Shown in pieces: positions 2,733-61,380 of a DNA stretch of 64,000 nucleotides. This stretch comes from an uncultured Bacteroidales bacterium (GTDB lineage Bacteria; Bacteroidota; Bacteroidia; Bacteroidales; UBA932), in assembly GCA_944322715.1 (NCBI GenBank), contig CALUPT010000009.1:56671-120670 (forward strand). Direction: 5' to 3'. The notes beneath the pieces are model-generated. The model was given only the letters and a program-made list of their open reading frames with translations, had not been told where the DNA came from and searched no databases. The translations under genes were made by a program, and so were the position numbers. Position 1 is the first letter of the stretch. Each line of letters begins with the position of its first letter.

Positions 2733-3692
2733 TCAAACCAATAGTTTTGCAACAACTGAAGTATAGTGTTGGCTTAAATATTTTGCATACTTATTTATAT
2801 TCGGAGCGACGGATAAGCTTTCATCCATTGCTCTCGTAAAACTATCATAATCGGTAACTCTTTTTGTCATATTACCCAATTCAAAATAATCAGTATCTGC
2901 GTTATCTTCAAAACGTGATATGATATTACAACCCGATGACAATTCCTCAAGGAAACGTGGCGTCACTTGATTAAAACCATTTGTTCTTTTTTCGCCTCCA
3001 TCCATTCCCGGAGTAGAATAAAAAGCCACCTTACTCTTTTTCAACAAAGAAAAATAATCTTCCCTCGTTATGATATTTCCTACATATTCACCCGTATTCG
3101 TATAATACGGGAAATTACCATTTGATATTTCCTTTCTATATACATATTTCAAAGGATGATTTTTGGCATATTCTTCCAAATATTTCAGCAATATTGAATT
3201 TTGCCTTCCAACCAACACTAAATCATATTCTTTTTTAAATTCGGCGTCCGTATCTAATTTATATTTGTCCGGTAACGTAAGCGGCATATGAGAAACTTCA
3301 CGTGCAGGAGTATTAGCCATTAGAAACTCATATACTTCACGGCTTGATACATATAATCTTTCAACATTCGAATATGCCTTATAAAAGGCGGACAATTGTT
3401 CACGCTTTAGATAAAAATCTACAATGCACACTTTATGATTCTTTGCATTCATAAAATTGTTTCTTGTCCTTGCAGATATATCAAAATGGAAACACTTGCT
3501 ATTCCAGGTAAATATTTTGTTAGGGCTCAATCCTATTTTATCAATAAAACCAAACCCTCTTTTCCTTTTAATATTTTTATATAATTTTGCCCCGGGAATA
3601 TTTTTCAAAAGTTCGTCTTCCCATTCATAGAGTAAATCAAATGATGGCCAGTGTTCATAAGACCTTTCCGATATTATTAAAAAATTATCCAT
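2733..3692 (-). CDS. hypothetical protein in polysaccharide cassette (possible glycosyltransferase-like)
   Basis: 319-aa ORF with AT-rich codon usage matching its neighbours. Start overlaps the stop of the upstream gene. No motif I can name with certainty. Confidence 0.45.
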   Translation of the reverse strand: MDNFLIISERSYEHWPSFDLLYEWEDELLKNIPGAKLYKNIKRKRGFGFIDKIGLSPNKIFTWNSKCFHFDISARTRNNFMNAKNHKVCIVDFYLKREQLSAFYKAYSNVERLYVSSREVYEFLMANTPAREVSHMPLTLPDKYKLDTDAEFKKEYDLVLVGRQNSILLKYLEEYAKNHPLKYVYRKEISNGNFPYYTNTGEYVGNIITREDYFSLLKKSKVAFYSTPGMDGGEKRTNGFNQVTPRFLEELSSGCNIISRFEDNADTDYFELGNMTKRVTDYDSFTRAMDESLSVAPNINKYAKYLSQHYTSVVAKLLV

Positions 3693-4938
3693 TATGACAA
3701 TATTTTCTCATTCATTAAATCCATTGAAGCCCCTATAGCAACATCCATATTATAATACTCCCATTCGGCAAATCTACCCAACAGATAAAAACCTAATGGT
3801 TCAAGTATATTTTTCAATTCTTTAATCATACCACGGGTATCGGCTTTCTGTATCGGATATGTATATTTTTCATAATTGTGAATAATATATCTGGGATTAT
3901 AAGGCATTCGGGACAGATTTTCAAGAATCTCATCCTTAGAAATATAATCCGTGAATTCCACTGTTCCCGTCATAATGCCGGACGAATTGTTGCTATTTGA
4001 GAAATTCCCTGTACAGATTATTCTATGTGCATCATACTTCTTATCAGGCAAATACATCCAACTAAATGGGTTCTTATCTATTTTACAAAAAACGGAAGTA
4101 GTACCATGACTTTCCAATTCATCTATAGATTTTATAAAGCCGTACAGGTTCGTTGCACCGGCCAATAAAGATGGAAGATATTTAATGTTACCGCTAAAAA
4201 TGACTCTGTCAAATTCCATTCCTTCCACAAGCCACTTGCTTTCACACCTAGTTATTCTGAAAATTTCTTTATTGTAGATTATTTTCAATCCTGCAGACAA
4301 TCTGTCAGCCAGAAACTGCGACCCTCCTTTTATCGGATAATAAAACGAACTATGCACAAATTGACACTCCTCAATATGGTTCATATTATTGAATATCATT
4401 TCTTCAACTGTAGGCATAGGTAATTTGCCAGACAACCAAGAAAGAGGAACTTGAGTCAGATCACGTCGCCAAACCTTATAATTATATGGTTGAAAATATA
4501 GATTGTACAAAGTTTTACCAAACCTTTGGAGTAAGAACTCATCAAAATTTTGAGGTTTTATCTTCCCCCCCTAGCAATTTTAAGCAAATCGGCAATGAAT
4601 TTTTTCTGAATATGATCCTCAAAGCAATACATATGATTTTCAATAGGATACGGAACATTGTCCATTCCTTCAAACACAACAGAAGAATTCCTGGAAGCTT
4701 TTATAAATTCTTTCTCAACGTTAAAATGCTTCCAAAACCATTCTAATACATCTTCTCGTTTTGTATTGAAAACATGTCCCCCTGTTCTGTGAAACAGACA
4801 TCCTTTGATAATATCACATTTCATCATGCCACCCGGACGAGAATCTTTTTCAAACACAATGACATCGTTACCTGCATCTTTAAGCATATTGGCAATCGCC
4901 AATCCTGACATTCCTGCACCAATTACTGCAATATTCAT
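3692..4938 (-). pseudogene. FAD/NAD(P)-binding oxidoreductase (UDP-galactopyranose mutase / amine-oxidase-like), split by a frameshift in a G7 tract
   Basis: N-terminal ORF (4558-4938) starts MNIAVIGAGMSGLAIA (GxGxxG Rossmann motif). The second frame is open from 4570 and reads GGKIKPQNFDEFLLQRFGKTLYNLYFQPYNYKVW. The frames meet in C7/G7 at 4565-4571, and one extra G gives a single ~415-aa protein. Confidence 0.75.
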
Positions 4939-5008
4939 TTCTCCTTGTTCTTATGCGTTATTTCATATCTTTTATGTCCACTAAAATCAAGAAAACATAT
5001 AATGATTT

Positions 5009-6310
5009 TCACATTATATTTGCCGTGAATTTGTCATAAAAATCGGCTCGGATTTTCATCATCGCTTCAGGATTATAGTATTTCCTAACTTTAATTACTG
5101 CATTTTCAGACAGGCTCTTCTGCAATACGGTATCTGAAGACAGCATAACCATGGCTTTCCCGAACTCCTGCGGAGAATCTGCTATGATACAGTCAATTCC
5201 GTTGGTAAAATCTTGCCCTTCAACACCTTTACTTGTCGTAATGAACGGCGAACTGCTCCATACTGCATCAAGAATCTTCATTCTCATTCCACTTCCTATG
5301 CGTATCGGAACAATCGTTATTTTCCCATTGAGGAAAGTGTGTAGATCCTCAACAAATCCCATAAATTCCACTTCTTTATTATGCTTGTGTATTGTCCGTT
5401 TCGCTTTACGACTCCAGTTGCCTATTATATATATTTTGAAATCAGACAAATTTTCCTTGAGTACAGGCAATATGCATTCACAGAACCAGTTTACACCATC
5501 GTAGTTAGGAAAATGGTCCGACCCTCCGACAAATACAAATTCAGGTGTGCAAGTCTTGAACGGGACAAGTCTGTCCATTTTTATGACAGCTGGAGATACA
5601 TATATCTTCTCTTCGGGAATATATTTTGAAAGGATATTTTTGTCAGTTGCAGTAAGAGTGATTATGTAATCATATCTGCTCAACATGGAAATTTCTTTGT
5701 CTTTTGCCTGCTGATAGCGAGCAATGTCCATTAATGTCGGAGATTGAAGCATTGCCAGTTCATTCCCTCTGCGGATATAGTCTATTTCATGCTGCACGTA
5801 GACTTTTACAGCATTTTCAGGTAAGAAATAGCACATATCCAGCAATTCTCTGAACTCCGTCTGTATAATATCAAAGCCGCTCTCGGCAACATTATGGACG
5901 AACTCACAATATCCGGGATCCAGTTCTGAAGGACGCAGATTGATAAGTGTCCTTATGCGTAGCATCTTGTCGACATTGGGCCTTGAAGGCCAGTATTTAA
6001 AGAAAATTCGATTGTATTTTCTTGTAAATGAAGAGGAAAGACAGTGAAGCACGTGTGCCCTTAATGGCAACCACGATTTGCGTTTTCCTTCTTTTTTCGA
6101 GTATATGAAAAAACCGACATCCGGCCATACCCGTTTCAGAGCATCTATATCTTTCTGATGTCCTGCACGTATTAGTATGGACACCGAATGTATTTTCCTT
6201 AAATAATCTATCATGGAAAATACAGCCTGATTCCCTCCGCTATTTAAAGGGTATGGAATAAAAGGAGATATGAACAATATTTTCTTTACAAAATTTTGCA
6301 TTCTATTCAA
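5009..6310 (-). CDS. glycosyltransferase, GT-B fold (family 4/1-like)
   Basis: 433 aa. N-terminus KILFISPFIPYPLNSGGNQ and C-terminal GFVEDL...PIRIGSGMRMKILDA resemble GT4 enzymes. Confidence 0.7.
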   Translation of the reverse strand: MNRMQNFVKKILFISPFIPYPLNSGGNQAVFSMIDYLRKIHSVSILIRAGHQKDIDALKRVWPDVGFFIYSKKEGKRKSWLPLRAHVLHCLSSSFTRKYNRIFFKYWPSRPNVDKMLRIRTLINLRPSELDPGYCEFVHNVAESGFDIIQTEFRELLDMCYFLPENAVKVYVQHEIDYIRRGNELAMLQSPTLMDIARYQQAKDKEISMLSRYDYIITLTATDKNILSKYIPEEKIYVSPAVIKMDRLVPFKTCTPEFVFVGGSDHFPNYDGVNWFCECILPVLKENLSDFKIYIIGNWSRKAKRTIHKHNKEVEFMGFVEDLHTFLNGKITIVPIRIGSGMRMKILDAVWSSSPFITTSKGVEGQDFTNGIDCIIADSPQEFGKAMVMLSSDTVLQKSLSENAVIKVRKYYNPEAMMKIRADFYDKFTANIM

Positions 6311-6327
6311 TTATTTGAACACTTGCC

Positions 6328-7248
6328 TTATATTGCTTTATGCCGATGAAATCTTAAATATTTAAAAAATAATTTAACGCTATATCTCGGCGTGATACAA
6401 TATATTGATTTACAAAGACTGAAAAGGTCTTTATTCGAATAATTCCACTGCAACGTTTCTCGTAATAAACATCTTATATATCTATATAATGACTGTTTAA
6501 AATATCGATCTTTCCTATAGGAATAATTTTCGCGTAACCAGCGGATGAACATTAAAGTAGCTGTTACTTTCTCTTTATTATATGATTTATCATTAGATAT
6601 GTTGACACCTTCTGCATTTCTCCATAATACAGGATATCCGTGTATTGCAATCGCGCCATCTGCCTCTTGGGCCATTTTGAAAAATGTGGCATCATCCGAA
6701 CACCATGCTAATGGAAAATGAACAAATCCTTTGACCTTATGGTATAGATTTGCACTGAAAATGAATTCACATGCAGCGGAGTTCATTTTACCGAATAACT
6801 TATCACATAGCATTTCTTCCGCTGTAACAGTGTCTTTAAGGCATGAATTTGTTGATATCAATTCATTGCGTTCGGATACAACCGCCAACTGTATCCGAAA
6901 AAATTCCTTTTGCGGGTATTTGGATAAAGTATCATAAAATCTTGACACTATATCAAAAGGCATGATATCATCATCGGAAAAGAAAAAAATATACGGTTCG
7001 AGCGCCATATCAATACAGCGTTCCCAATGCGACAAAAGGTCTTTTGAACCAAGATTTTCCGGGAATTTCTTATAGACAATATCTATTACATCTTCATATT
7101 CCCTCACTACAGAATATATGTCATCCGGAGAATTATCATCTCCAATATATAATGTAAAATCTTTACAAGACTGTCTCGCTATAGAATCAAGTGTTTGAGA
7201 CAGAAAGCGAATTTTGAATGCAGGTATTACAATAGCCAACTTATTCAT
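6328..7248 (-). CDS. glycosyltransferase family 2
   Basis: LAIVIPAFKIRFLSQTLDSIARQSCKDFTLYIGDDNSPDD is the GT-A N-terminal motif with a DxD-type acidic patch. Confidence 0.8.
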   Translation of the reverse strand: MNKLAIVIPAFKIRFLSQTLDSIARQSCKDFTLYIGDDNSPDDIYSVVREYEDVIDIVYKKFPENLGSKDLLSHWERCIDMALEPYIFFFSDDDIMPFDIVSRFYDTLSKYPQKEFFRIQLAVVSERNELISTNSCLKDTVTAEEMLCDKLFGKMNSAACEFIFSANLYHKVKGFVHFPLAWCSDDATFFKMAQEADGAIAIHGYPVLWRNAEGVNISNDKSYNKEKVTATLMFIRWLRENYSYRKDRYFKQSLYRYIRCLLRETLQWNYSNKDLFSLCKSIYCITPRYSVKLFFKYLRFHRHKAI

Positions 7249-7261
7249 TGGGTCAAGTCAT

Positions 7262-7297
7262 GTTTTCCGGCAAAAATAATTATTTTTGCCGGAAAAC
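7262..7297. promoter_or_regulatory. perfect 36-bp palindrome carrying two back-to-back TAnnTTTG -7 boxes (candidate bidirectional promoter/operator)
   Basis: GTTTTCCGGCAAAAATAA|TTATTTTTGCCGGAAAAC, read directly. TATTTTTG lies at 7281-7288 on the + strand and is mirrored at 7271-7278 on the - strand. It sits between divergent starts 7248 (-) and 7305 (+). Confidence 0.5.
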
Positions 7298-7304
7298 ATA
7301 CAAC

Positions 7305-8342
7305 ATGAGTTCAGTAAGCATAATTATTCCGGTCCATAATACAGCCGCATATTTAGAAACATGTATTGATTCTGTTCTTAACCAGACGTTAAAGGACATA
7401 GAAATCATACTTGTAGAAAACGGATCATCCGACAATTCTTATCGGATATGTCTGGATTTAGCCTTTAAAGATTCCCGCATAAAAGTGTTGCAGATTGATG
7501 TTGCCGATCTTTCCACTGCAAGGAACCGAGGAATAGAAATGGCTACATCCGAATATATCGGATTTGTGGACAGTGATGATTATATTGATCCGGATATGTA
7601 CTCAACAATGTATGACTGTGCAACAAAATATAATGCAGATATAGTATGCTGTAATTTTATGTATGTCTTTCCTGATGGAAGGAAATTGCAAAACTTCGCA
7701 GACACAGGAAATATACGTCTCATTTCACCGAAAGAAATGATAGTCTCTATTTTTCAGGAACGGATAAGTTCTTCATCTTGGAGTAAAATATATAAAAAGG
7801 ATATTTTCTCAAAATGGACTTTCCCTGAAGGATATACGTTTGAAGACCACCGTTTAATATATAAAATCATTGCGGACTGCAATATCTGTGTTTATATAGA
7901 TAAGTCATTGTATTACTACCTGCAGAGAGAAGACAGCATTGTCCACGATCTGACATTCAAACGGAGATACCATTATTTCCTCGCAGATTATGAAAGAATT
8001 CTCTTTGCACAGAATTACCCTGAATTTTCAGACACAGAAAAAGCGAGAATAATAAAAAAACAGTTCGATATATGTTTCAATAATCATTTTGGAGGATTTA
8101 TGACTGTTCCTGGTGCACCGGAACAGACTCAAATGATCAATGACATGAAACATAAGTTGCTATCATTTCTTAAAAGTGGATATATTTCCCGACATGACAG
8201 GAGAGCTCTTTATACTATAAAATATCTGTGGTATATATACGATTGGACACATTTTTTGAAATTCCGTAGGCGACGTGCAAGGAAGACAAGGTTAAAGTCT
8301 ATCCAATCCGGAAAACCAGGAATGCACATATTCAATGGATAA
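7305..8342 (+). CDS. glycosyltransferase family 2
   Basis: MSSVSIIIPVHNTAAYLETCIDSVLNQTLKDIEIILVENGSSDNS...GFVDSDD is a classic GT2 pattern. I prefer the Met at 7305 because the track start at 7248 would read through the promoter palindrome. Confidence 0.8.
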   Translation: MSSVSIIIPVHNTAAYLETCIDSVLNQTLKDIEIILVENGSSDNSYRICLDLAFKDSRIKVLQIDVADLSTARNRGIEMATSEYIGFVDSDDYIDPDMYSTMYDCATKYNADIVCCNFMYVFPDGRKLQNFADTGNIRLISPKEMIVSIFQERISSSSWSKIYKKDIFSKWTFPEGYTFEDHRLIYKIIADCNICVYIDKSLYYYLQREDSIVHDLTFKRRYHYFLADYERILFAQNYPEFSDTEKARIIKKQFDICFNNHFGGFMTVPGAPEQTQMINDMKHKLLSFLKSGYISRHDRRALYTIKYLWYIYDWTHFLKFRRRRARKTRLKSIQSGKPGMHIFNG

Positions 8343-9371
8343 TTGCCTCGATATTTCTATTGAGGATTCTTTCATTTTGTCCAGAACTGTACCTTGCATT
8401 TTTGACATAGCATGAATTGCCGACACAAAAGATTCTACCGTGTTTTCACAGAAAATACAATTATTATTTGTACAGTAGTCTCTGATAGACCCTACATCAC
8501 TGGCAATTATCGCTAATCCCATTGACATGGATGTGGTAATCACATTACTTCCTACCGTATCGTCCATAATATTTAAAGAAATATCAGAATCTTGCATTAA
8601 TCCTCTTAAAATATCTTCTGGGACAAATCCGACAGCCCTGACATTGTCATATTTTTGAAATTCAGGATCCAGTTTCCTCTTTCCATGACATATTATGAAA
8701 TCAACATCATGACATTGCTTAATGATATCTGTCAATATGGAATAATTTCTCTGCATATTCCCCATGGAAATAACAACAGGTTTGTCTGATTTATGCGCCG
8801 AGTTTGTTCTTCCATAATATGATGAATCGACATAATGTTTGCCTGTATCTATTTTTAAGGACTTGATCTCAAATGAAGAGAAGAATGAAGATGCAGACGA
8901 TCCTAAAGTAAGCAAAACGTCAATGTCCCGTACACTGTTTTTTATAAAATTTTCATAATCATCACAATATGACTTATACCATGATGGAGTAAGATGCGCC
9001 ATCGCATATATTTTTAACATTGGCACATGCTGACGAATATAATTCGCCAATATATTTTGTGGCACATGCGGAACAAGATATTCTAACAAAAATATTTCGT
9101 CCTCTTGTCTGAGTATTTTGGAAAGCGATTTTGCAATATGATAATAATGCCTCTTGAATAATACATTAGGCTTGAAGATATGGATTTTCTCTAGAAGTTT
9201 ACAAATTTTAGCATTATTTGATATTTTAAATTGCGATGGAGGCGGGATGGCAATCATTTTATATTGGTCAGCATATGCAGAAACAAGCATATCACACATG
9301 TGCTTCATCCCTGCATGATTTCCTTCGGTATTTTCCCATTCCTGAACAATAAGATATTTCATAGAATTCAA
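8292..9371 (-). CDS. glycosyltransferase, GT-B-like
   Basis: 359 aa. The C-terminal half (RAVGFVPEDILRGLMQDSDISLN...GSNVITTSMSMGLAIIASD) resembles the GT1/GT4 nucleotide-sugar binding region. Confidence 0.55.
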   Translation of the reverse strand: MNSMKYLIVQEWENTEGNHAGMKHMCDMLVSAYADQYKMIAIPPPSQFKISNNAKICKLLEKIHIFKPNVLFKRHYYHIAKSLSKILRQEDEIFLLEYLVPHVPQNILANYIRQHVPMLKIYAMAHLTPSWYKSYCDDYENFIKNSVRDIDVLLTLGSSASSFFSSFEIKSLKIDTGKHYVDSSYYGRTNSAHKSDKPVVISMGNMQRNYSILTDIIKQCHDVDFIICHGKRKLDPEFQKYDNVRAVGFVPEDILRGLMQDSDISLNIMDDTVGSNVITTSMSMGLAIIASDVGSIRDYCTNNNCIFCENTVESFVSAIHAMSKMQGTVLDKMKESSIEISRQLSIEYVHSWFSGLDRL

Positions 9372-9393
9372 TCTTTGATATTTGCAACAACTG

Positions 9394-10185
9394 CTATTTC
9401 CTTTTGATTGTAAGCATAATCCAATATTTCTCAGGGTGATTGAAAATGCTGTGTTTAAATGATATTACCTTTTTTGCACCTGTATTTCCAATCATGGCTC
9501 CTCCTGCCGTTGTTGTATATATCCCGGAATATTTGCCTTCCAAATATGATTTGGATGAATAAAATCTGTCAGTCAATTTCCCGTGTGACCAATGCCTGCA
9601 TTTCATAGGAAGTACTTTGGAAACTATGCCGTATTTTTCGAAAGAATTTATGCAGAAGTCTTCAACGTAAAGATCGAAAGAAAAGGAAGGATCAAAGCGT
9701 AGCGAATATTTTCCGATAAGGGTTGAATGGACTATAAGACACTGACAATCAAAAGTATCTACTATCCCTTTTTTCAATAAACCTTTTTCTTTTTTTATAT
9801 TTTCCCCATTCCTGTCCGATTGCCAGCATTCCCCGACGGAGTATCTGTAGATTTTCTTTTCAGTCACTATTGACTTAGCACCGATTGGCCCGTATAAATT
9901 ACCTGTAGACAGATTGTTGAGTTTTGACGCAATGGATTCCTTCGCTTCCCAGTCTTCATGACAGAATACAAACCATGCCGGCTCGGCGAAATCATATCCA
10001 TCGAGAAAAAAATTATAGCGGGATGCTATCCCGATATTCTCGCTCCTGTTGTCAAAAGCAACAAAATCCGCCCCGGAATTATAAACGTTTTTCCGGACCA
10101 GCCTGTCATACATTTTAAAATCCCGGACTACGGATATAAATATTATTTTCGGCAGTTTATAATCACTGTTGCGTGTCTCGCTCAT
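9394..10185 (-). CDS. hypothetical protein, glycosyltransferase-like
   Basis: 263-aa ORF, first gene of a two-gene minus-strand unit in the AT-rich cassette. IIFISVVRD...FDN...HEDWE is weakly GT-A-like. Confidence 0.4.
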   Translation of the reverse strand: MSETRNSDYKLPKIIFISVVRDFKMYDRLVRKNVYNSGADFVAFDNRSENIGIASRYNFFLDGYDFAEPAWFVFCHEDWEAKESIASKLNNLSTGNLYGPIGAKSIVTEKKIYRYSVGECWQSDRNGENIKKEKGLLKKGIVDTFDCQCLIVHSTLIGKYSLRFDPSFSFDLYVEDFCINSFEKYGIVSKVLPMKCRHWSHGKLTDRFYSSKSYLEGKYSGIYTTTAGGAMIGNTGAKKVISFKHSIFNHPEKYWIMLTIKRK

Positions 10186-10212
10186 TTAATGTTGCTTGAG
10201 TTCTATTGTTTT

Positions 10213-10839
10213 TCAAAAATAACGATTAATTCTTGTATCACAAAAATAAACAGAAAAGCCGAGATCGGTAAAGTCAGTCGAAGCCACATATAAATCGAAA
10301 AGGTCACGTCCTTTCTTACGTTGGTACAAGGCACGGAACTTCGTTCCCAAAAGTTCGTTCAGCTGATATGTCGTTATTTCGCACCTACCGGAAAACCAAG
10401 TGTTTTCCATTTCAAACGGGATTTTCACCAACCCTAACTCATTAAAATGCTCGAAGCAGTTTATCTCTATCTTCAGTCTCAATGGAACGGTAGGAGGAAT
10501 TTCCGATTCCATGCGGAACAACATTGTATTGTTATAGCGTTTTTGTTTCGTTACCCGCTCCGGCATAAAGGCCAAGACCTCGCCAAGTCGGAACAGAATC
10601 GGTTTGATTGGTCCTGGATTGATTTGCACCAAGTCTATATCCTCACTGTATCTCGGTTGGGGGGAAAGGTATAGTTTATGAAGGGCAGTACCTCCGCGAA
10701 AAGCAAGTTGAGAGGCAAGAAACTCATCGCTGAAAATAGCGACCAATGCACGTGAAATAACCAGGTCTTGTTCCACCTGTGCATTGTCGCTCCAAGGAAC
10801 TTGCCTGTTCCATTGGGCTATGGACGCTCTGTTTATCAT
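10213..10839 (-). CDS. nucleotidyltransferase AbiEii/AbiGii toxin family protein, probably 3'-truncated
   Basis: IAQWN...VEQDLVISRALVAIF...LAFRGGTALHKLYL...RYSEDIDLV is the AbiEii NTase motif. Only 208 aa. The last ~24 codons are AT-rich junction sequence. Confidence 0.75.
   Translation of the reverse strand: MINRASIAQWNRQVPWSDNAQVEQDLVISRALVAIFSDEFLASQLAFRGGTALHKLYLSPQPRYSEDIDLVQINPGPIKPILFRLGEVLAFMPERVTKQKRYNNTMLFRMESEIPPTVPLRLKIEINCFEHFNELGLVKIPFEMENTWFSGRCEITTYQLNELLGTKFRALYQRKKGRDLFDLYVASTDFTDLGFSVYFCDTRINRYF
10214..10248 (-). promoter_or_regulatory. two TATTTTTG -7 boxes upstream of the 9394-10185 gene
   Basis: The + strand has CAAAAATA at 10214-10221 and 10241-10248 (minus strand TATTTTTG). 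The proximal box is ~29 nt from the ATG at 10185. Both lie inside the AT-rich tail of the abiEii ORF. Confidence 0.4.
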
Positions 10840-11639
10840 ATTTCGTCAATTTCTATATTTAGATTTACATTTATTTTCCAACGGCTGTTTTTGCCAGCAG
10901 AATTACCCGTATGGCGGGTACTTAACGGGACATACCGGAATCGCTTGGAATAGGTTGTCAATTCCTTATAAAGTATATCGGCAACTTCCTGCTGCTGTAA
11001 TACTTCCTCCAATATATACCCCAAACGTTGTATGGTAGCAAGCGTAGTATAATTGAAAAGCGATTGCGCCGCATTTGTGAATTCTGTTTGCTCCGATAAT
11101 TCTTCCAGAACAGTCGCAACACGGGAGAGTCCTCCGACATATTGTTCATATTGTACGAGGTCGAGAGCCGTCAATTCGGCATTGGAGTAACGGATAATCC
11201 CGGTTTCCGAATTTTTCGTCAGCAGGAAACCAGCCGGTATCTCCTTACGATATGACCATGACAACAGGTTGTTCTTTGCAACGGACACCGAAGCCTTCGG
11301 AAATATAGTAGTTACTGAAAACTTCTGCGGTCGTTGATGCGCTGCGCCCAATAGTTCTGCCGCACTGAGCAGACTTATATAGTAGGGCTTATTCAGACAA
11401 CTCATCAGTTGGTCTATATAATAAAGAGGCGGGACTGTTCCCTTTGCTGCATATTGAGGTGGAATAACCACATAAAAGCCACGATATACCGGCACGATGA
11501 TTTTTTGTGCCGATAGACGGAACAATTCGTTTTTGACGACCTGTTCCGAGAAATCAGGAAACCTCTTCCGCACATCCTCAAAAGCAAAGGTGGGCAGTCC
11601 GTTGATTTCTCTATCCCGTATCCATTCTCTAACTGTCAT
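10836..11639 (-). CDS. type IV toxin-antitoxin system AbiEi family antitoxin
   Basis: 267 aa. N-terminal wHTH-like region (FAFEDVRKRFPDFSEQVVKNELFRLSAQKIIVPVYRGFYVVIP). Overlaps the toxin start by 4 nt. Confidence 0.8.
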   Translation of the reverse strand: MTVREWIRDREINGLPTFAFEDVRKRFPDFSEQVVKNELFRLSAQKIIVPVYRGFYVVIPPQYAAKGTVPPLYYIDQLMSCLNKPYYISLLSAAELLGAAHQRPQKFSVTTIFPKASVSVAKNNLLSWSYRKEIPAGFLLTKNSETGIIRYSNAELTALDLVQYEQYVGGLSRVATVLEELSEQTEFTNAAQSLFNYTTLATIQRLGYILEEVLQQQEVADILYKELTTYSKRFRYVPLSTRHTGNSAGKNSRWKINVNLNIEIDEI

Positions 11640-12925: not shown

Positions 12926-12958
12926 AAAAAAGGGGATGACATTTGCTCCGTCATCCCC
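12926..12958 (-). terminator. rho-independent terminator downstream of tRNA-Leu
   Basis: The minus strand reads GGGGATGAC-ggagcaaat-GTCATCCCC followed by TTTTTT. Confidence 0.7.
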
Positions 12959-12961
12959 CGG

Positions 12962-13169: not shown

Positions 13170-13976
13170 TCAAATCTCTACATTGATGTCGAATGTCGTT
13201 TCCCAGTCATTGATGACAAGTGTCACATCCGCCTTCGCATAGTCTATCTTGATATCCACATCTTCAAGACTGTCTGTCCCCCAGTCATACCCGCTCTCTA
13301 TGATGTATTCCCCCACGGCGAATTCTCTCAGAACGCCATCTCCATCTGAAATTACAAGTCTCAACGAACTGTCCACCTGTCTCGGAATCCTCACGCTGCA
13401 GCAGCCTTTTTCATCAATTCCGGGCACAACTCTGAAATTTCCCGGAACAGGAGCGCCATCCTTTCCATATCCGCATACATTCCCCTCGATGGCAATACTG
13501 AAATCCGCAGGTACATCCGCCACCATTTCGACAGACAGCACGCAGTAATTCTTGTACAGTACAACAGGTACCGTGACCGTTTCCGCAGCAGTATCCACAT
13601 ACGCGGAAAACATGTTTACGGGCGGGCACTCTTCTCCGTCAGGTATGTGCAGCCCCGCCCAGTCCGAAACCAGCATACCGGACAGGTCATCATACCCTGA
13701 CTCGACGGAACAGACATTGACCCATATACCATTTTTCGGCACTTCAACACGGTACGGCTCCCCATACCTTCCATTGTCGAGGACATATCTGTGAAGAAAG
13801 CCGTCCGCAGACAGAAGACTCAGAAAAGAAGAATCCGACCTGTCTGTATCTACCCTGCTGAAATCAAGCATCAAGACACAGGGACACCCGCTCCTGTCCT
13901 CTTTCACAGAACACCCCATGGATGTGGCAATGACAACTAATCCGAACAACACGACGGACGACAATCTTCCAGACAT
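13170..13976 (-). CDS. FimB/Mfa2 family fimbrial (type V pilus anchor/terminator) lipoprotein
   Basis: Preferred start is MSGRLSSVVLFGLVVIATSMGCS (lipobox), then EDRSGCPCVLMLDF, typical of the Mfa2/FimB N-terminus. Last gene of the operon. Confidence 0.6.
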   Translation of the reverse strand: MSGRLSSVVLFGLVVIATSMGCSVKEDRSGCPCVLMLDFSRVDTDRSDSSFLSLLSADGFLHRYVLDNGRYGEPYRVEVPKNGIWVNVCSVESGYDDLSGMLVSDWAGLHIPDGEECPPVNMFSAYVDTAAETVTVPVVLYKNYCVLSVEMVADVPADFSIAIEGNVCGYGKDGAPVPGNFRVVPGIDEKGCCSVRIPRQVDSSLRLVISDGDGVLREFAVGEYIIESGYDWGTDSLEDVDIKIDYAKADVTLVINDWETTFDINVEI

Positions 13977-13989
13977 GACATTATATGAT

Positions 13990-14979
13990 TTATATTTCAA
14001 CTGACTGTGATATCCCAGGTTCCCAGTCGGAAACGGATATCGTAAACTCCGCATCCTGCGTGGTCACAGGCCAGTCGGCAAACCGGGAACCCAGCCTCGT
14101 GATCCTCAACTCCGATATCTCGTATTTGTGGTTGCTTTCTATCCCTTTGATGGAAATCGGATACCAGTACACCCTGCTGTCCATCTCCATTTCCACGACC
14201 AGCCTCGTATATCTCGGACACCACTCGGTCTCGATGCTGTCAGTCTCGGTAGGGTTAGGATAGCAGTACAGATAATGCGGCTGTTCGTATGAAGTCCCGT
14301 ACTCAATCACCGTATTGATATTAGGATCAATGACAAGATAGTTCATTTCAGCATGATATGTCCTCTGGTTATACCATAATGCCGGTGCTCCCTGCCCATC
14401 ATATCTGACATCAGCCGCCACATTCGCGAGGAATACACTCACCAGCTTGAATTCCTTTTCCCTGTACTGTTCCAGAGCAAGTGCATTGGTAATCTTATGG
14501 ATACTTATCCTCGCCGCAAGACGCTTCACCTCGACTTCTATATCGGTGGCACCCACTACGGTCTCCACTTTTGACCCGTACATGACGAAGTGGCCTTTCA
14601 TGTTTTCATCAAGGCGGGATACGGACTCATCCAGCATCTCCTTGTCTGTTATCCCGGTAATCTGAGGCGCATTCACAACGGCGACTACGCGCTTAAGGCC
14701 CGCCGTACATTTTATGGTCAGGGATGCAGCATCCTCCGTCATTGCCCATGAATCCAGCATTCCATCCTGCCGGAAGACAAAGACCTGCAGAGAGTTCACA
14801 TTGTCTTCTCCCTCGGAGGTGATATACTTTGTCTTTGCTACCGGGACCGAGACATTGATCTCCACCTCCTCACCTTTTCCGGCCACCACCGGCGGCTCAT
14901 TCACTGCAATCTGCTCCTTGCTGCAGGAGACGCTGCACACTGCTGCAATGAAAACTGCAGCGAAAAAACTTCTTTTCAT
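13990..14979 (-). CDS. fimbrillin (FimA/Mfa1-like type V pilin) lipoprotein
   Basis: MKRSFFAAVFIAAVCSVSCS lipoprotein signal. SLQVFVFRQDG...RVVAVVNAP pattern is typical of Bacteroidales fimbrillins. Sits in the expected position between the accessory genes and the Mfa2-like gene. Confidence 0.6.
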   Translation of the reverse strand: MKRSFFAAVFIAAVCSVSCSKEQIAVNEPPVVAGKGEEVEINVSVPVAKTKYITSEGEDNVNSLQVFVFRQDGMLDSWAMTEDAASLTIKCTAGLKRVVAVVNAPQITGITDKEMLDESVSRLDENMKGHFVMYGSKVETVVGATDIEVEVKRLAARISIHKITNALALEQYREKEFKLVSVFLANVAADVRYDGQGAPALWYNQRTYHAEMNYLVIDPNINTVIEYGTSYEQPHYLYCYPNPTETDSIETEWCPRYTRLVVEMEMDSRVYWYPISIKGIESNHKYEISELRITRLGSRFADWPVTTQDAEFTISVSDWEPGISQSVEI

Positions 14980-15010: not shown

Positions 15011-16903
15011 TCATTTCGGCATATTTCCGATGATTTCGGAGAGTTCCGGATCGAGATTCGCCCTGAACACCATCGACGGATCCTGTCCAATGCTCCGGAG
15101 ATATGCCTTTCCGGCATCTTTCAGCCTTCCCATGCGGGAAAGGGCTATGGCCATGAGATACTCTGTCTTTGCCGTCGGAGGAGACACCGCCTCCAAATCC
15201 CTGATAGCCGAATGGTTGTAACCGGCTGAAAGATAGGCAAGAGCGGTATTGTAGTCATGATACGGCCTCAACAATTCCACAGCCTTCTTATAGTCAAGGT
15301 CTTTCAATGCCTGTACTCCCCGAGCATATACCGTGTCTATCACTGTCGTATGGACCGTATCCCTGTCCATCCCCTTCCTGTGGAGGTAAAAATCGAACCT
15401 GACGCTCCGGAGTCTGGGATATATCTTCTCCCGGAGATACCGGTATTCAGGCATGGCGGCAAGAAGCCCGGCTTCCGCAATATCCTTGTCATCATGGTCT
15501 GCCGCCTCAAGTATCCTGTCCTTGGCAGACCGGGACAGAGTGGTATCGCTGTCCACCAGGCGGCGGAACTGATCCCAGTTCTCAGGAATGCATCCTGTCC
15601 GGAGTTTCTTTCTGCTGTCACTGTCGAGCATTGTCCCCACGAAGTCTTTCATGGTCTCGGCCCTGGCAAGAGAGAGTCCGGCATTATAGGCGTATGTCCC
15701 TTCCGGAGAACAGGATGCCGTGACGGTCAGGGAATCAAGTTCGAACTCCGTCCTCGCGACGATCCCTTCCACACATTCCCTGATTCTCGACAGTTCGGCC
15801 ACATTGCCGGGAAGCAGAGAGTCCAGATCCGCCTTGCCCTGCGCAAAGTCTATGAATGCATGGGTGTTGTCATAGACCCTCCTTTCCACCACCTTCATCA
15901 CATACCTTGGCGTCATGTCCGCAAGGGAAGAGAGAGAACTTACATAAAAGACTATGTCTTCCGGACGTTCGACGGTGCATATCGCCTCTCCATCCTCATA
16001 CAGACTGCCATCAAGAGAGACTTCTATCTTCCTCAGCCCGGGTCTGCTGTCCACAAGCTGCACATACCTGTATGTCATGTCGCCATCCGCACCGGCAATG
16101 ACAGTATCGAGCCTCGGTCCTGAAGAGACAAGCGGATCCTTGACGTATTTTCTGAACATGCGGTCCCTGTCCGCCTTGCGTCTTTCGTTCCTGTTGTAGA
16201 GATGATGCCTGGTATAATGCTCCAACGCCTCTTTCCGGCTCACTCCGAAGACATTTTCCGCTACGGGCTCCGGGACGAACGACGAATCGGTCCTCATGGC
16301 GTATGTTTCAGGGAAATGTCTCCGTATGAATATCTCCAGCTGTCCGATCCGGACAAAATCAGAACTGTCGCCTATAATGGACCTAAGGAAACGTTCGTAC
16401 CTCCTGTATCCGCGCATCTGTTCATCCCTGTATTTCTGTCCCGTAATGCATACGGGATCAAGACGCGTACTGTCCCCGAGCATTTTCATGAGCGGAAGCA
16501 GTTCAAGTTTCCAGGAAGATGACAGCAGCCCGGACGGAACCGTTATGTCGAACTCCAGGCTGATCCTGCCGAAGCGTTCCGCCACATTCCTGAAACGGGC
16601 CACTACCCTGGATTCCGCAATGACATCGGTAGCCACCATCTCGCCCGTCTTCTCATCCTTGATTGCATTCATTATCAACGGCCCATCCGACATGTCCCCG
16701 GACAGCGAGTCCACCTTGATTTCCCTCATCATCTTCTCCTTCTCTTTCTCGAAATCCTTATCGGATGGTATGGACAGGTCCGGACGCATCCTGCCGAGCC
16801 TGATCTCCGACAGCCTCCTTTCCGATGCACATGAAACCGCAAGCAGCATAATGAAGGAAAGCCATGCGTACCAGGCCATGCCGTATAGCTTTTCAGAAAA
16901 CAT
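15011..16903 (-). CDS. pilus-locus accessory lipoprotein (DUF3868-like N-terminal part, OmpA-like segment, C-terminal TPR-like part)
   Basis: 630 aa. LLAVSC lipobox. ASCSPEGTYAYNAGLSLARAETMKDF resembles the OmpA-C peptidoglycan-binding motif. Follows a DUF3575 gene, as DUF3868 proteins usually do. Confidence 0.45.
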   Translation of the reverse strand: MFSEKLYGMAWYAWLSFIMLLAVSCASERRLSEIRLGRMRPDLSIPSDKDFEKEKEKMMREIKVDSLSGDMSDGPLIMNAIKDEKTGEMVATDVIAESRVVARFRNVAERFGRISLEFDITVPSGLLSSSWKLELLPLMKMLGDSTRLDPVCITGQKYRDEQMRGYRRYERFLRSIIGDSSDFVRIGQLEIFIRRHFPETYAMRTDSSFVPEPVAENVFGVSRKEALEHYTRHHLYNRNERRKADRDRMFRKYVKDPLVSSGPRLDTVIAGADGDMTYRYVQLVDSRPGLRKIEVSLDGSLYEDGEAICTVERPEDIVFYVSSLSSLADMTPRYVMKVVERRVYDNTHAFIDFAQGKADLDSLLPGNVAELSRIRECVEGIVARTEFELDSLTVTASCSPEGTYAYNAGLSLARAETMKDFVGTMLDSDSRKKLRTGCIPENWDQFRRLVDSDTTLSRSAKDRILEAADHDDKDIAEAGLLAAMPEYRYLREKIYPRLRSVRFDFYLHRKGMDRDTVHTTVIDTVYARGVQALKDLDYKKAVELLRPYHDYNTALAYLSAGYNHSAIRDLEAVSPPTAKTEYLMAIALSRMGRLKDAGKAYLRSIGQDPSMVFRANLDPELSEIIGNMPK

Positions 16904-17447
16904 AAGATATACCTATTATGACATTGTCAGGAAGTATAAAGCCCTTTATCCCCCTGTCGAGCGTCAGTCCGCAGGCCGGGCACGAATACCTCGCGTATTC
17001 CTTCACCCCAGACCAGAAGCCGAGACCGAAATCGAGATTGATACGGGGATGAACCATATAGGTGTATCCTGCCGACAGCCCGGCTCCCCACCTGTCTCCC
17101 TCCTCTGTCTCAGGAGACACTATTCCGCCCATGCTGTATTCCTGATACTGCAATTTCGCCGCTATCCACCACCCGGAATATATATGCCATGGCCAGTACC
17201 TGGTCCCGAGACTATAGGACTGCTGCCTGTTCTGCATCTGCCGCCCGTTTCCGTGGAACGTGAACGGATTGTATCTCGCTCCGGCCGTAAGGCTCCAATG
17301 CCTGTGAGGCGCATACGACACTTCCACATTCATTGTCCCGAAATTGAGATAGCCTGCCATATTGGTCGACACGGAATACTTCTGTCCATGGGCGGTGAAC
17401 GCCAGAAGGCTGAACACGAGTACACCTATATGTTTCATTATATTCAT
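16893..17447 (-). CDS. DUF3575 domain outer-membrane beta-barrel protein
   Basis: 184 aa. Signal peptide, then alternating beta-strand pattern (NMAGYLNFGTMNVEVSYAPHRHWSLTAGARYNPF...). Ends in aromatic ...GISYVF. Confidence 0.65.
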   Translation of the reverse strand: MNIMKHIGVLVFSLLAFTAHGQKYSVSTNMAGYLNFGTMNVEVSYAPHRHWSLTAGARYNPFTFHGNGRQMQNRQQSYSLGTRYWPWHIYSGWWIAAKLQYQEYSMGGIVSPETEEGDRWGAGLSAGYTYMVHPRINLDFGLGFWSGVKEYARYSCPACGLTLDRGIKGFILPDNVIIGISYVF

Positions 17448-17454: not shown

Positions 17455-19032
17455 CTACCTGTATCTGTTGAATACCTGCTCTATCATGATCTGTCTGTCA
17501 GGATACAGCTGTACCAGTTTTTCACGCAGTTTCTGCTTGTCCGTCACATCGCTCTGAAGAGCGGCCAGCAGCTGTGCCCTCGTCAGTCCCCTGTCTTCCA
17601 GATAGCGGAAAATCTGAGGATAGAACCATGATGATGTACCGTATGCCGGGACCTGTCCGCCGTATCTCTCCTTGTGCATCATGCTCTCTACATAGTATGC
17701 CCACATCTCGCCCACTTCGCAATGACCTGCATACTCTCCATCTCCGACCCCGTATGTCTCACCGCCGGTCTCAATGAAGGACTGGAGTATATAGCGGATA
17801 TAATTGTTCCAGTACCCTGTCCCGACCTGAGCGAAATGGCTGGAATGCGCAAGCTCGTGCACCGTACTGTCATACAGTTCCGCATAGCTGTCATGGTTCT
17901 GGGTTCCGATGGTTATGTCAGGGGCGAAGAACTTTATCAGGAGAGAGAACACTCCGAGGAAAGACTTGACAAGGGCATTGTCCACTATCGCTCCGTGGTG
18001 TATCATCACTGCGCTGCTTGCGGAAAGCGACTTGAAAAGCCATATCCTGAGGTCTCCCGGAGGAGCAGGCAGATTCATGTCGTCCGGAGAGCATCTGGAG
18101 ATATAGTCGTAGGCCGCATTGCTCACAACGGAACGCCTGTACAGCATGTCATCGCAAGCCCGGGAGACGGTGTAGTTTATTCCCTGGGCCGGACCTTTCC
18201 CGAGAGTGGAGACCGATGCAGGGACCAGGACAAGGTTGAAGCCGATGGAAAAGCCTGCCGCGTTCTTAAACACAAGCCTGTATCTCAACTTGGCCGAATA
18301 TCTCTTCGGTATAGTGTAGTATCCATCCCTGTCGGTATATGTGGACGAAAACTTGATGAATGTATTGCAAGAGACCCTGACCCCGGCAAGGCCGAACGGC
18401 TGTCCTCCGTTCGCATTTTCATCCACAATGGTTATCCTGCCTGTCGGATTGTATTTCGTAGCCTTGGTGAGGGCCGTCTCATCCAGCATGTCTTCATTCC
18501 CGGTAAGCCGGTAGGACTCCTTTTCCACCTCTTCCCAGTCTATGTCCGTCATGGCCTTGGTGGTCTCGCTGTTGTCGGCGAGGAAACATTCGTCAATTAT
18601 CTCGTATCTGATGCCATCCGGAAAGTCGAAATCCTTGTCCACTACAGCATATTGCCACGTGATGTTGTCTTCCCCTACGGAAGGGTCATGATAATAGTCC
18701 CCTTCCGCGACAATCTCATAATCCATCGGATGGTCGAGCATCTCCACGCCCATGTCCTCGAGCAGGTCGAACTCTTCCTGGTCGGCCGGCAGGAATCTCA
18801 CATACAGGTCCGTAGTCTGCACTATGTCCCTGGACTTTGTAGGATATACGGCAGAGAAGGCCGCTCTCGCATTCTCAGTCGTATAAGGATTGTCAAGACG
18901 GCTGCCCAGGACTATCATTCCGTGCTGCAGTCCGTCATCATGAAGGAAGCCGTCACTCCCGATATGCGTCCCCCCTTTGTCGCAGGACATCACAAGCAAC
19001 GCCGCTGCGAAGATTCCGATAAACTTTCTCAT
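17455..19032 (-). CDS. HExxH (zinc-metalloprotease-like) lipoprotein, first gene of the pilus operon
   Basis: LLVMSC lipobox. VHELAHSSHF motif with downstream acidic residues (GEMWAYYVE). Internal carboxypeptidase-regulatory-like beta segment (GRITIVDENANGGQPFGLAGVRVS...TDRDGYYTI). Confidence 0.55.
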   Translation of the reverse strand: MRKFIGIFAAALLVMSCDKGGTHIGSDGFLHDDGLQHGMIVLGSRLDNPYTTENARAAFSAVYPTKSRDIVQTTDLYVRFLPADQEEFDLLEDMGVEMLDHPMDYEIVAEGDYYHDPSVGEDNITWQYAVVDKDFDFPDGIRYEIIDECFLADNSETTKAMTDIDWEEVEKESYRLTGNEDMLDETALTKATKYNPTGRITIVDENANGGQPFGLAGVRVSCNTFIKFSSTYTDRDGYYTIPKRYSAKLRYRLVFKNAAGFSIGFNLVLVPASVSTLGKGPAQGINYTVSRACDDMLYRRSVVSNAAYDYISRCSPDDMNLPAPPGDLRIWLFKSLSASSAVMIHHGAIVDNALVKSFLGVFSLLIKFFAPDITIGTQNHDSYAELYDSTVHELAHSSHFAQVGTGYWNNYIRYILQSFIETGGETYGVGDGEYAGHCEVGEMWAYYVESMMHKERYGGQVPAYGTSSWFYPQIFRYLEDRGLTRAQLLAALQSDVTDKQKLREKLVQLYPDRQIMIEQVFNRYR

Positions 19033-19057: not shown

Positions 19058-19065
19058 CAAAAGTA
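19058..19065 (-). promoter_or_regulatory. TACTTTTG -7 box of the pilus operon
   Basis: The + strand CAAAAGTA lies 26 nt upstream of the ATG at 19032. Confidence 0.4.
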
Positions 19066-36925: not shown

Positions 36926-38347
36926 ATGAAACACAGACTGATTGCGACAATCGCCATTGCAGCCATGCCTGCGGCGGGATATTGGGCATCCGCCCAGGAG
37001 TATGTATCGCAGAGACCTGCAGAGCAGGACAGGCTTTTCCGCTCGGAAGCCGTGGAGGACAAGATCATCGAAGTGCAGGGGCTGCTCACCAATCCGAAAC
37101 TGGCATGGATGTTCGCCAACTGCTTCCCGAATACCCTGGACACCACCGTACATTTCAGAGAAAACGAGGATGGAAGTCCGGACACCTTTGTCTATACCGG
37201 AGACATCCATGCAATGTGGCTCAGGGATTCAGGGGCACAGGTGTGGCCGTATGTCCAGCTGGCGAATGAAGATGAACACCTGCGCGAGATGATAGCAGGA
37301 GTGATCACCAGACAGTTCAAGCTGATCAACATAGACCCTTACGCAAACGCATTCAACGATGGTCCTACGGGAGGGGAATGGATGTCCGACATCACGGAGA
37401 TGAACCCGAACGTGCACGAAAGGAAATGGGAAATAGACTCCCACTGCTACCCTATCCGTCTCGCCTACCGGTACTGGAAGACCACGGGGGATGAATCCGT
37501 CTTCGGAGATGACTGGCTCGCTGCCATCCGCAACACCCTCAAGACATTCAAGGAGCAGCAGCGCAAGGATGGTCCCGGTCCGTATTCGTTCATGAGAAAG
37601 ACCGAAAGGCAGCTGGACACCAAATGCTGCAGCGGATACGGCAACCCTGTCAACCCGGTAGGCCTGATAGTCTCATCCTTCCGTCCGTCGGATGATGCGA
37701 CGACATTCGATTTCCTGGTGCCTTCCAATTTCTTCGCAGTGACATCCCTGCGCAAGGCAGCGGAGATCCTCGACAGTGTCAACCGTGAGAAGGAGCTCGC
37801 GGCAGAATGCAGGGCGCTTGCAGATGAGGTCGAAAAGGCTCTGAAGAAACACGCCATTGTCAAGCACCCGAAATACGGGAAGATATACGCATTCGAGGTG
37901 GACGGGTTCGGCAATGCCTACCTTATGGATGATTCCAACGCGCCGAGCCTGCTGTCCATGGCATATCTCGGGGATGTGGATGTGAATGATCCTATATACC
38001 GGAACACCAGACGTTTCGTCTGGAGCGAGGACAATCCTTATTTCTTCAAAGGCACGGCAGGAGAAGGTATCGGCGGACCGCATATCGGATATGACATGAT
38101 ATGGCCGATGAGCATCATGATGAAGGCCTTCACCTCGCAGGATGATGCCGAAATCAAATGGTGCATCGAGACCCTTATGACAACCGATGCAGGGACCGGC
38201 TTCATGCACGAGTCTTTCCACAAGGACAATCCGGAGAAGTTCACCCGCGCCTGGTTCGCCTGGCAGAACACACTTTTCGGGGAGCTCATCCTCGAACTCA
38301 TCGATGAAGGCAGACTCGACCTGCTCAACAGCATAGACATAAAATAG
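36926..38347 (+). CDS. glycoside hydrolase family 125 (exo-alpha-1,6-mannosidase-like)
   Basis: TGDIHAMWLRDSGAQVWPY and the DUF1237/GH125 pattern. Start at MKHRLIATIAIAAM (signal peptide). Confidence 0.8.
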   Translation: MKHRLIATIAIAAMPAAGYWASAQEYVSQRPAEQDRLFRSEAVEDKIIEVQGLLTNPKLAWMFANCFPNTLDTTVHFRENEDGSPDTFVYTGDIHAMWLRDSGAQVWPYVQLANEDEHLREMIAGVITRQFKLINIDPYANAFNDGPTGGEWMSDITEMNPNVHERKWEIDSHCYPIRLAYRYWKTTGDESVFGDDWLAAIRNTLKTFKEQQRKDGPGPYSFMRKTERQLDTKCCSGYGNPVNPVGLIVSSFRPSDDATTFDFLVPSNFFAVTSLRKAAEILDSVNREKELAAECRALADEVEKALKKHAIVKHPKYGKIYAFEVDGFGNAYLMDDSNAPSLLSMAYLGDVDVNDPIYRNTRRFVWSEDNPYFFKGTAGEGIGGPHIGYDMIWPMSIMMKAFTSQDDAEIKWCIETLMTTDAGTGFMHESFHKDNPEKFTRAWFAWQNTLFGELILELIDEGRLDLLNSIDIK

Positions 38348-38407
38348 AGCCCGGACGTACTGACAGAATCCGGAAACCATAGAATAACAGTAAAACATTC
38401 ATTCGAC

Positions 38408-40240: not shown

Positions 40241-40262
40241 AAGCCATATACAGATGACTCTT

Positions 40263-40298
40263 CAGCCCGGCCCCTTAAGAGGTCGGGCTGATTTTTTT
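40263..40298 (+). terminator. rho-independent terminator after the GH2 gene
   Basis: CAGCCCGGCC-ccttaaga-GGTCGGGCTG followed by ATTTTTTT. Confidence 0.75.
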
Positions 40299-40329
40299 AT
40301 AAATTAATACTTTTTTAACCGAAGTCGTA

Positions 40330-40337
40330 TATCTTTG
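40330..40337 (+). promoter_or_regulatory. TATCTTTG -7 box upstream of the ECF sigma gene
   Basis: Matches TAnnTTTG. Lies 58 nt upstream of the TTG at 40395. Confidence 0.4.
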
Positions 40338-40394
40338 CATAAACGAGAAAGCCGGCGGACTCTGACGAGTCCGCTGACAAAAAACAACCGGGCT

Positions 40395-40939: not shown

Positions 40940-40985
40940 GGATTTTCAGGCGCTGCTGCGACATACAGATAAAGACACTCCGATT

Positions 40986-41849: not shown

Positions 41850-41884
41850 CCCTTATTTTCACATAACACCTAACAACTAAATTC

Positions 41885-45442: not shown

Positions 45443-45454
45443 AGGACTATCTCA

Positions 45455-55446: not shown

Positions 55447-55457
55447 CTGTCCGATTT

Positions 55458-56240: not shown

Positions 56241-56241
56241 A

Positions 56242-57243: not shown

Positions 57244-57255
57244 AATTATCTCGTT

Positions 57256-59408: not shown

Positions 59409-59411
59409 CTC

Positions 59412-61294: not shown

Positions 61295-61305
61295 AAAAAG
61301 TCAAG

Positions 61306-61322
61306 TATTTTTGATAATTTTG
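61306..61322 (+). promoter_or_regulatory. two adjacent TAnnTTTG boxes (TATTTTTG, TAATTTTG) upstream of truA
   Basis: Located at 61306-61313 and 61315-61322, ~60 nt from the ATG at 61381. Confidence 0.3.
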
Positions 61323-61380
61323 CACTCAAAACAACGGAAGCCGGCCCGTTCCCGAGACAACTTCCAGCAAAACAGCAGCC

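Follow-up and report, generated by a model that had tools for sequence, protein, structure and literature searches.

Might the protease that matures a type V pilin be encoded within the pilus operon itself? Among the fibres with which gut and oral Bacteroidota adhere, type V pili are the principal ones; the protease that their assembly requires has been identified by experiment in Porphyromonas alone, whose pilins are processed by gingipains. The question is raised by a 64-kb stretch of DNA from an uncultured Bacteroidales bacterium (contig CALUPT010000009.1; the whole stretch is called the window below), in which a gene for a lipoprotein with an HExxH motif (17455-19032, minus strand) precedes a set of genes that includes a type V pilin gene. 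The original prediction, made from the sequence alone, took this lipoprotein for a dedicated pilin-maturation protease and started from the premise that the processing enzyme is not known beyond Porphyromonas. This premise was overstated: a 2025 review names a surface clostripain for Bacteroides (PMC12632263), and the question of processing is therefore narrower than had been assumed. Our best reading of the sequences and of the structural models is that the protein represents a gluzincin-like family of envelope peptidases, which in this clade is coupled to a module of DUF3575 and type V pilus-like proteins. We assign a rough probability of 0.4 to a peptidase with a substrate within this module, and about half of this falls to strict pilin maturation.

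A family of lipoproteins with a conserved HExxH motif

The gene encodes a protein of 525 residues from an ATG start; all features of its operon given below lie, like the gene itself, on the minus strand. The N-terminus, MRKFIGIFAAALLVMSC, reads as a signal peptidase II signal with a lipobox (residues 1-17, 18982-19032) and a predicted lipidated Cys17. In an alignment of 66 diverse representatives with about 30% identity to the query, to which the conservation counts given below for this protein refer, Cys17 is present in all 66, and the lipoprotein nature of the predicted enzyme is thus borne out. Many family members carry K-(D/E)2 after the lipobox cysteine, which fits the surface-export signal of lipoproteins in Bacteroidota (PMC5080379), and a location at the cell surface is conceivable for the family. 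The G+C content of the window is 50%, and at third codon positions (GC3) that of the gene is 0.65, the same as in its native neighbours.

How much does the motif itself reveal? It lies in the stretch VHELAHSSHF (residues 391-400), in which HExxH comprises residues 392-396 (17845-17859) and HELAHSSH, read codon by codon, residues 392-399 (H392-E393-x-x-H396-x-S398-H399; 17836-17859). When the window protein is shuffled, 1.6% of the resulting sequences contain an HExxH. By itself, the motif is weak evidence, and it is conservation that is decisive. H392, E393, H396 and H399 are kept in 64-65 of the relatives, as are D372, E442 and W444, and S398 in 60; the full HExxH...E set, including the catalytic glutamate, is found in about 97%. 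Because the motif is kept across relatives of such low identity, and given the shuffle rate, chance occurrence is ruled out, and the zinc-binding-type motif of the original prediction stands. With the additional, near-invariant S398 and H399, the pattern becomes HExxHxSH, which to our knowledge matches no family motif.

The family is large. More than 2,100 close homologues were found in a 90%-clustered collection, and among the 1,834 clusters (50% identity) that an exhaustive HMMER search returned, 276 lie below 1e-30. IMG/VR contigs and INPHARED phages contained no relatives, and we rejected a phage origin. Irrespective of any connection to pili, this defines a large family of zincin-like lipoproteins that has no relative in Pfam, NCBIfam or among solved structures.

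According to an AlphaFold model, a disordered linker of low confidence (residues 15-36) leads into an N-terminal alpha/beta domain (residues 37-190, 18463-18924) with pLDDT values of mostly 80-95 and numerous invariant residues. It is followed by an inserted beta-sandwich (residues 197-290, 18163-18444) of transthyretin or CarboxypepD_reg-like type, for which Foldseek returned transthyretin-like folds and those of SusC N-terminal extensions. The internal carboxypeptidase-regulatory-like domain proposed before is thus present as a modelled fold, but its Pfam matches (CarboxypepD_reg and CarbopepD_reg_2) are weak and sub-threshold in 9 and 4 of the 66 relatives, respectively, and a Pfam scan of the window protein itself gave neither. 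The remaining residues 291-525 (17458-18162) form a mainly helical C-terminal domain, which is predicted to be a zincin-like catalytic domain.

A probable zincin-like fold, closest to gluzincins

Structural comparison weakly indicates the fold class. The full-length AlphaFold2 model, built from a 50-sequence alignment (pLDDT 85.6, pTM 0.82), found aureolysin, a protease of the thermolysin family, as its top Foldseek match in the PDB (E 2e-3, probability 1.0, TM 0.51 on the target). When the C-terminal domain was modelled alone (pLDDT 95, pTM 0.92), thermolysin was the best real-looking neighbour, albeit a weak one (TMq 0.47, E 1.7), and neither the PDB nor BFVD held a significant Foldseek neighbour of the catalytic domain. 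Several of the insignificant matches in the viral library BFVD (E >0.2) were of metallopeptidase type, namely M48, SprT, lethal factor and IrrE. A metzincin or gluzincin fold had been suggested as a test of the original prediction; a thermolysin-family protease did emerge on top, but the metzincin motif is lacking and the matches of the catalytic domain are weak.

In the model, helix 295-313 is followed by strands 329-333 and 373-376 and by helix 383-403, on which HExxH resides. The subsequent helix 435-457 carries E442 (17707-17709) as part of a GEMW motif. This glutamate is kept in 64 of the 66 relatives and is a candidate third zinc ligand.

To which peptidase class might the protein belong? 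A Pfam-type scan of all 66 relatives produced only sub-threshold matches to CarboxypepD_reg, WLM and SprT-like. Membership in M4 was rejected: a sequence or profile match is lacking, the glutamate motif is GEMW rather than NExxSD, and an hhalign comparison of the catalytic-domain profile with thermolysin covered 22 columns, the HExxH stretch only, at 5% probability. We also rejected a metzincin, because HELAHSSHF has His instead of Gly at position +3 after the second His and neither His nor Asp at +6, and an aspzincin, because GTxDxxYG is absent from the sequence. Clan CD cysteine peptidases (gingipain C25, clostripain C11) gave no Pfam match to the protein, and its conserved residues are of zincin type; if it matures pilins, then it is an enzyme of another kind than C25 and C11. 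Judging from motifs and models together, we read the protein as the member of a new zincin-like family that most resembles gluzincins and is neither an M4 member nor a metzincin.

Linkage to DUF3575 and an Mfa2-like gene

Is the gene neighbourhood of the window conserved? We collected orthologous loci at a threshold of at least 41% identity. Nineteen came from species-representative genomes, all of uncultured Bacteroidales and several of Candidatus Cryptobacteroides, and a metagenome scan, which gave only close orthologues of at least 53% identity, added 80 more. With further look-ups of representatives at 41% identity and of P0328, in which gene order was unchanged, the total came to 104. A DUF3575 gene lies directly 3' of the HExxH gene in 89 of the 92 loci with enough downstream sequence, and the junctions measure 7 nt or overlap. 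When only the 48 loci that extend 5 kb or more downstream are considered, DUF3575 is found in 45, an Mfa2-like gene in 45, a gene for a 630-residue lipoprotein in 30 and the stalk pilin gene in 28. The full set is present in 28 of these long loci, DUF3575 and the Mfa2-like gene only in 14, DUF3575 alone in one, and none of them in two. Linkage to both DUF3575 and the Mfa2-like gene persists down to 41% identity.

The upstream neighbourhood of the HExxH gene is usually PheT...DeoC. At four loci (L065, L067, L077, L092) the DeoC-PheT block is inverted and positioned downstream, and the trio of HExxH, DUF3575 and Mfa2-like genes is nevertheless intact; this suggests that the trio as such is under selection and is not kept together merely by inheritance of gene order. 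Minimal modules also exist. One consists of the HExxH gene and DUF3575 only (L107, 7001-9149), and another of these two and the Mfa2-like gene, with neither stalk pilin nor 630-residue protein (L012, 8001-10854). Because such modules exist, the pair of putative protease and barrel is suggested to be the conserved functional core. DUF3575 as a common companion of fimbrial genes fits published tables for Bacteroides thetaiotaomicron, in which the DUF3575/DUF3868 genes BT4233-36 are near the Mfa1-type fimbrilin BT4227, the remaining gene listed in that block being a response regulator (PMC10434189).

In the window, the HExxH gene is the first of five genes. A Bacteroidota-type -7 promoter box, TACTTTTG (19058-19065; consensus TAnnTTTG), is found 25 nt 5' of its ATG, and among 71 distinct orthologous upstream regions, 21 have a TAnnTTTG box at a distance of 21-29 nt from the ATG (background 0.04 per 150 nt). 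The preceding DeoC gene is followed by a GC hairpin with a T run, located further upstream than the promoter box. The original prediction had placed the HExxH gene 7 nt upstream of pilus genes. The distance is right, but the adjoining gene encodes DUF3575, and the pilin gene is found two genes beyond it. The DUF3575 protein (16893-17447; PF12099, E 2e-35) is an outer-membrane beta-barrel protein of 184 residues with a signal peptidase I-type signal. It is followed by the lipoprotein of 630 residues (15011-16903), which has a C-terminal TPR region with a weak match and, as read from the sequence, a putative OmpA-like motif; then by the stalk-type pilin (13990-14979) and by an Mfa2/FimB-like, anchor-type lipoprotein (13170-13976). 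A PDB sequence search with the 630-residue protein and the pilin returned nothing. The gene for the anchor-type protein most likely starts at 13976, at an internal Met, with the N-terminus CSVKEDRSGCPC. A strong intrinsic terminator-like hairpin of 11 pairs with a T run (12931-12959) closes the operon. The longest open reading frames of the p630 and p294 genes extend 11 and 65 nt into the gene before them; with internal Met starts for these two genes, the intergenic gaps are 7, 13, 31 and 13 nt. Being so closely spaced, and flanked by a single promoter box and a single terminator-like hairpin, the five genes look like one transcription unit with the HExxH gene in first position.

Pilin and anchor as candidate substrates

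If the lipoprotein cleaved a product of its own operon, what could the substrate be? The pilin has 329 residues and a lipobox with Cys19. It matches Pfam P_gingi_FimA (E 5e-6; 27.2 bits at a cut-off of 21.4) and, below the NCBIfam cut-off, fim_Mfa1_fam (E 8e-9); its type V nature is thus borne out, in that it is made as a lipoprotein with a FimA/Mfa1-type domain. It contains the stretch ...VSVPVAKTKYIT..., with a (T/S)-(K/R) pair that corresponds to T50-K51 (14827-14832, in VSVPVAKTKYITSE) and falls at the canonical type V cleavage position, past the first strand, with a conserved LQVFVF strand following about 15 residues later. The basic residue that had been expected in this N-terminal region is indeed conserved: all 25 distinct pilin orthologues have the pair, whose basic member is Lys in 20 cases and Arg in the other 5 and whose first member is always Thr or Ser. 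By analogy to a Bacteroides fragilis tip pilin, for which cleavage at R43 has been measured (bioRxiv 10.1101/2024.11.15.621889), T50-K51 is a candidate cleavage site. Arg is the reported cleavage residue of Bacteroides and Porphyromonas pilins and Lys predominates in this clade, which therefore may employ a pilin protease of different specificity.

The Mfa2/FimB-like window protein itself has no Pfam match; of 14 orthologues, two match PF08842 (Mfa2; best E 9e-6). Its N-terminus CSVKEDRxxCPC (13925-13976) is almost invariant and far better kept than the rest of the protein, with E5, R7, C10 and P11 present in all 14 aligned orthologues (loci L002-L098). The K-E-D part fits the K-(D/E)2 export signal; the invariant Arg and the C-P-C fall outside this signal.

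Which substrate?

Several observations weigh against a role at the pilus module, or against a peptidase altogether. Of the 48 long orthologous loci, 20 have no stalk pilin; one locus has DUF3575 only, and L051 is devoid of DUF3575. Two orthologues of about 50% identity (L010, L011) have HExxH and GEMW intact and are followed by unrelated genes, with no pilus-type neighbour. The orthologous loci as a whole are metagenomic, partly redundant and derived from one lineage. Besides the poor profile alignment with thermolysin, scans of the HExxH protein against Pfam, NCBIfam and PADLOC gave no match, and a PDB sequence search, with the single protein and with the 66-member profile, gave nothing relevant. 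The residues following the lipobox of the window protein, CDKGG, are a poor fit to the surface-export signal. Moreover, the 2025 review has Bacteroides pilins cleaved by a surface clostripain (PMC12632263).

More distant relatives (28-37% identity) add to this. Single-protein look-ups gave context for 11 loci with nine different proteins. All 11 are without DUF3575, pilin or DeoC neighbours, and in all 11 one or two small proteins of 128-170 residues follow the HExxH gene (L100 1835-2767; L101 2554-3063; L104 6249-7216; L105 8574-9050; L109 1922-2314; L112 8129-9088; L114 7865-8794; L115 6646-8028; L116 6663-7604). Of nine small neighbours whose sequences were read, most have a lipobox. They are weakly related to one another, several being linked by BLAST, and no Pfam family was found among six that were scanned. 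Because distant relatives have such other partners, the HExxH family overall is not a pilus family, and linkage to pilus-type genes is confined to one lineage as far as these loci go. The arrangement is reminiscent of the potempins discussed below, by analogy to which the small proteins may be inhibitors, immunity proteins or substrates of the adjacent protease; the recurrent partner suggests that protease-inhibitor or protease-substrate pairs exist in gut Bacteroidales.

Two further features of distant loci are recorded here. Directly upstream of the HExxH gene, L101 (115-738) and L114 (5426-5971) each encode a secreted protein of small size that contains a Peptidase_S74 domain, an intramolecular chaperone of the tail-fibre type; the two proteins share 32% identity, and L102 repeats the arrangement of L101. 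At L105 (7001-10933), two HExxH paralogues of 527 and 511 residues are arranged in tandem with a small lipoprotein between them. Most genes of this region are short and without annotation, one is DNA methylase-like, and the region may be a mobile element; viral collections gave no relatives.

Conceivably, then, the protein is an envelope or secreted zinc protease whose substrates are unrelated to the pilus, with a function in lipoprotein shedding, foraging or antagonism. The position next to DUF3575 would then be a lineage-specific matter, and pilins would be cut by a cysteine protease of clostripain or gingipain type. We consider this a serious alternative, though one that falls short of an even chance. 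It is favoured by the small lipoprotein partner of all 11 distant loci and the weak relatedness of these partners, by L010 and L011, which keep the motifs away from pilus-type genes, and by the frequent absence of the stalk pilin. According to the review, clostripain cleaves Bacteroides pilins, many lipoproteins are cut and set free from the surface by fragipain, and Bacteroidota have conserved orthologues of Fpn (PMC12632263). The potempins provide a precedent from Bacteroidota for a protease with an adjacent small inhibitor lipoprotein (PMC9890683). It is less easily reconciled with the linkage to DUF3575 (89/92) and to the Mfa2-like gene (45/48), which extends to 41% identity and across a rearrangement, and with the 7-nt or overlapping junctions, which suggest co-expression. 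In addition, the conserved basic residue of the pilin is Lys in 20 of 25 orthologues, whereas clostripain-type enzymes prefer Arg.

Alternatively, the protein might be exactly what the original prediction held, a dedicated pilin-maturation protease with the sole role of removing the N-terminal strand of the co-encoded fimbrillin. This is unlikely. The type V pilus-type operon is indeed headed by the gene for a zincin-like lipoprotein, and protease and pilin share that operon, the former with a zincin signature and the latter with a conserved basic site; also, a Pfam scan of 20 other window proteins, which cover part of the 64 kb, found no C11 or C25 peptidase. But "dedicated" is hard to maintain when 20 of 48 long loci retain the protease gene and have no pilin, when two loci have that gene alone (L010, L011) and when all sampled distant relatives have other partners instead of a pilus context. 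The conserved core, moreover, comprises protease, DUF3575 and an anchor-type protein, and anchor subunits remain uncleaved in known type V systems. None of our results refutes the more general idea of a pilin protease, which we regard as partly supported, its basis being synteny within one clade.

Finally, the protein might be a zincin-fold lipoprotein that catalyses some other hydrolysis or only binds a metal or ligand, for instance in a structural partnership with the DUF3575 barrel. This would accord with the failure of peptidase families and structures to give a significant match, with the unfamiliar HExxHxSH motif and with the two other domains making up more than half of the protein. It is improbable, however, given that about 97% of diverse relatives have the HExxH...E set with the catalytic Glu, that the full-length model has its top fold match in a thermolysin-family protease and that M48, SprT, lethal factor and IrrE are among the weak matches in the viral library.

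How might the putative peptidase act?

Returning to our preferred reading, a peptidase that acts on a component of the DUF3575/pilus-type module, we envision a scenario whereby zinc would have H392 and H396 of the active-site helix and E442 of a later helix as its ligands, E393 would serve as the catalytic base, and the strand after the invariant P371-D372 would provide the edge to which substrate binds. In Candidatus Cryptobacteroides and related Bacteroidales, the gene appears to be transcribed first in the operon from a promoter of its own. It is in tight linkage with the DUF3575 barrel gene, nearly always together with the Mfa2/FimB-like gene, and often with those for the OmpA-like lipoprotein and the stalk pilin. 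The enzyme would most likely be an outer-membrane endopeptidase that acts on a lipoprotein of the module. The leading candidate would be the pilin, which might be cut in the loop with the conserved T-K/R, whereupon the lipidated N-terminal strand would be removed and the subunit would polymerise.

In its most far-reaching form, this scenario would make the proteins an unrecognised family of lipoprotein zinc endopeptidases, which in one lineage would have become an operon-encoded type V pilus maturase, replacing gingipain or clostripain and acting in a complex with the DUF3575 barrel. We regard this form as doubtful. A corollary, should it be true, is that a protease inside the pilus operon would render pilus assembly a self-contained and transferable module, and that there would be a first functional handle on DUF3575, which is a very common outer-membrane protein.

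Other genes in the window

A low-GC3 island at 2733-11639 (0.28-0.46, versus 0.60-0.74 in most of the remaining window) holds GT1 and GT2 glycosyltransferase genes and, at 10213-11639, an AbiEii toxin/AbiEi antitoxin pair; this segment, for surface polysaccharide, was probably acquired by horizontal transfer. A SusC/SusD pair with GH125 and GH2 genes (36926-47239) and a region at 52798-63402, in which a BatD-like/TPR protein (52798-55446) is followed by several genes on the same strand as in an aerotolerance (Bat) operon, represent ordinary Bacteroidales content.

Comparison with known systems

Which known systems does the HExxH lipoprotein resemble? In fold, the closest are thermolysin and aureolysin (MEROPS M4; gluzincins, clan MA), respectively the best fold matches of the C-terminal and full-length models. 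They share with it an HExxH motif on a helix, a conserved Glu on a later helix and a two-lobed architecture. The spacing is different: this Glu follows the second His by 46 residues and is part of GEMW in the window protein, whereas in thermolysin it follows by 20 residues, in NExxSD. Sequence homology to M4 is not detectable, and the window protein adds S398 and H399, a beta-sandwich insert and a lipid anchor.

With regard to the proposed job, the parallel is to the Arg- and Lys-gingipains (C25), as in both cases a surface lipoprotein pilin would be cut at a basic residue to permit strand exchange, and the action would take place at the outer membrane. Gingipains are cysteine peptidases that are secreted by the type IX system, are encoded away from fimbrial loci and have many substrates; the window protein is a predicted zincin-like lipoprotein encoded inside the operon. 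Fragipain and doripain (C11) of Bacteroides and Phocaeicola are likewise proteases of the outer surface and cleave and release surface lipoproteins. They differ in catalytic class and fold, are Arg-directed and are encoded outside pilus operons.

For the family at large, the KLIKK peptidase-potempin pairs of Tannerella forsythia offer a further comparison. There, the protease gene lies beside a gene for an outer-membrane lipoprotein inhibitor of 98-132 residues (PMC9890683), much as distant HExxH relatives directly adjoin small lipoproteins of 128-170 residues. The likeness is one of gene arrangement, and the order differs, the potempin genes being located upstream of the KLIKK peptidase genes and the small genes downstream in the HExxH family. 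In the clade of the window, it is DUF3575 that occupies the place of the small lipoprotein.

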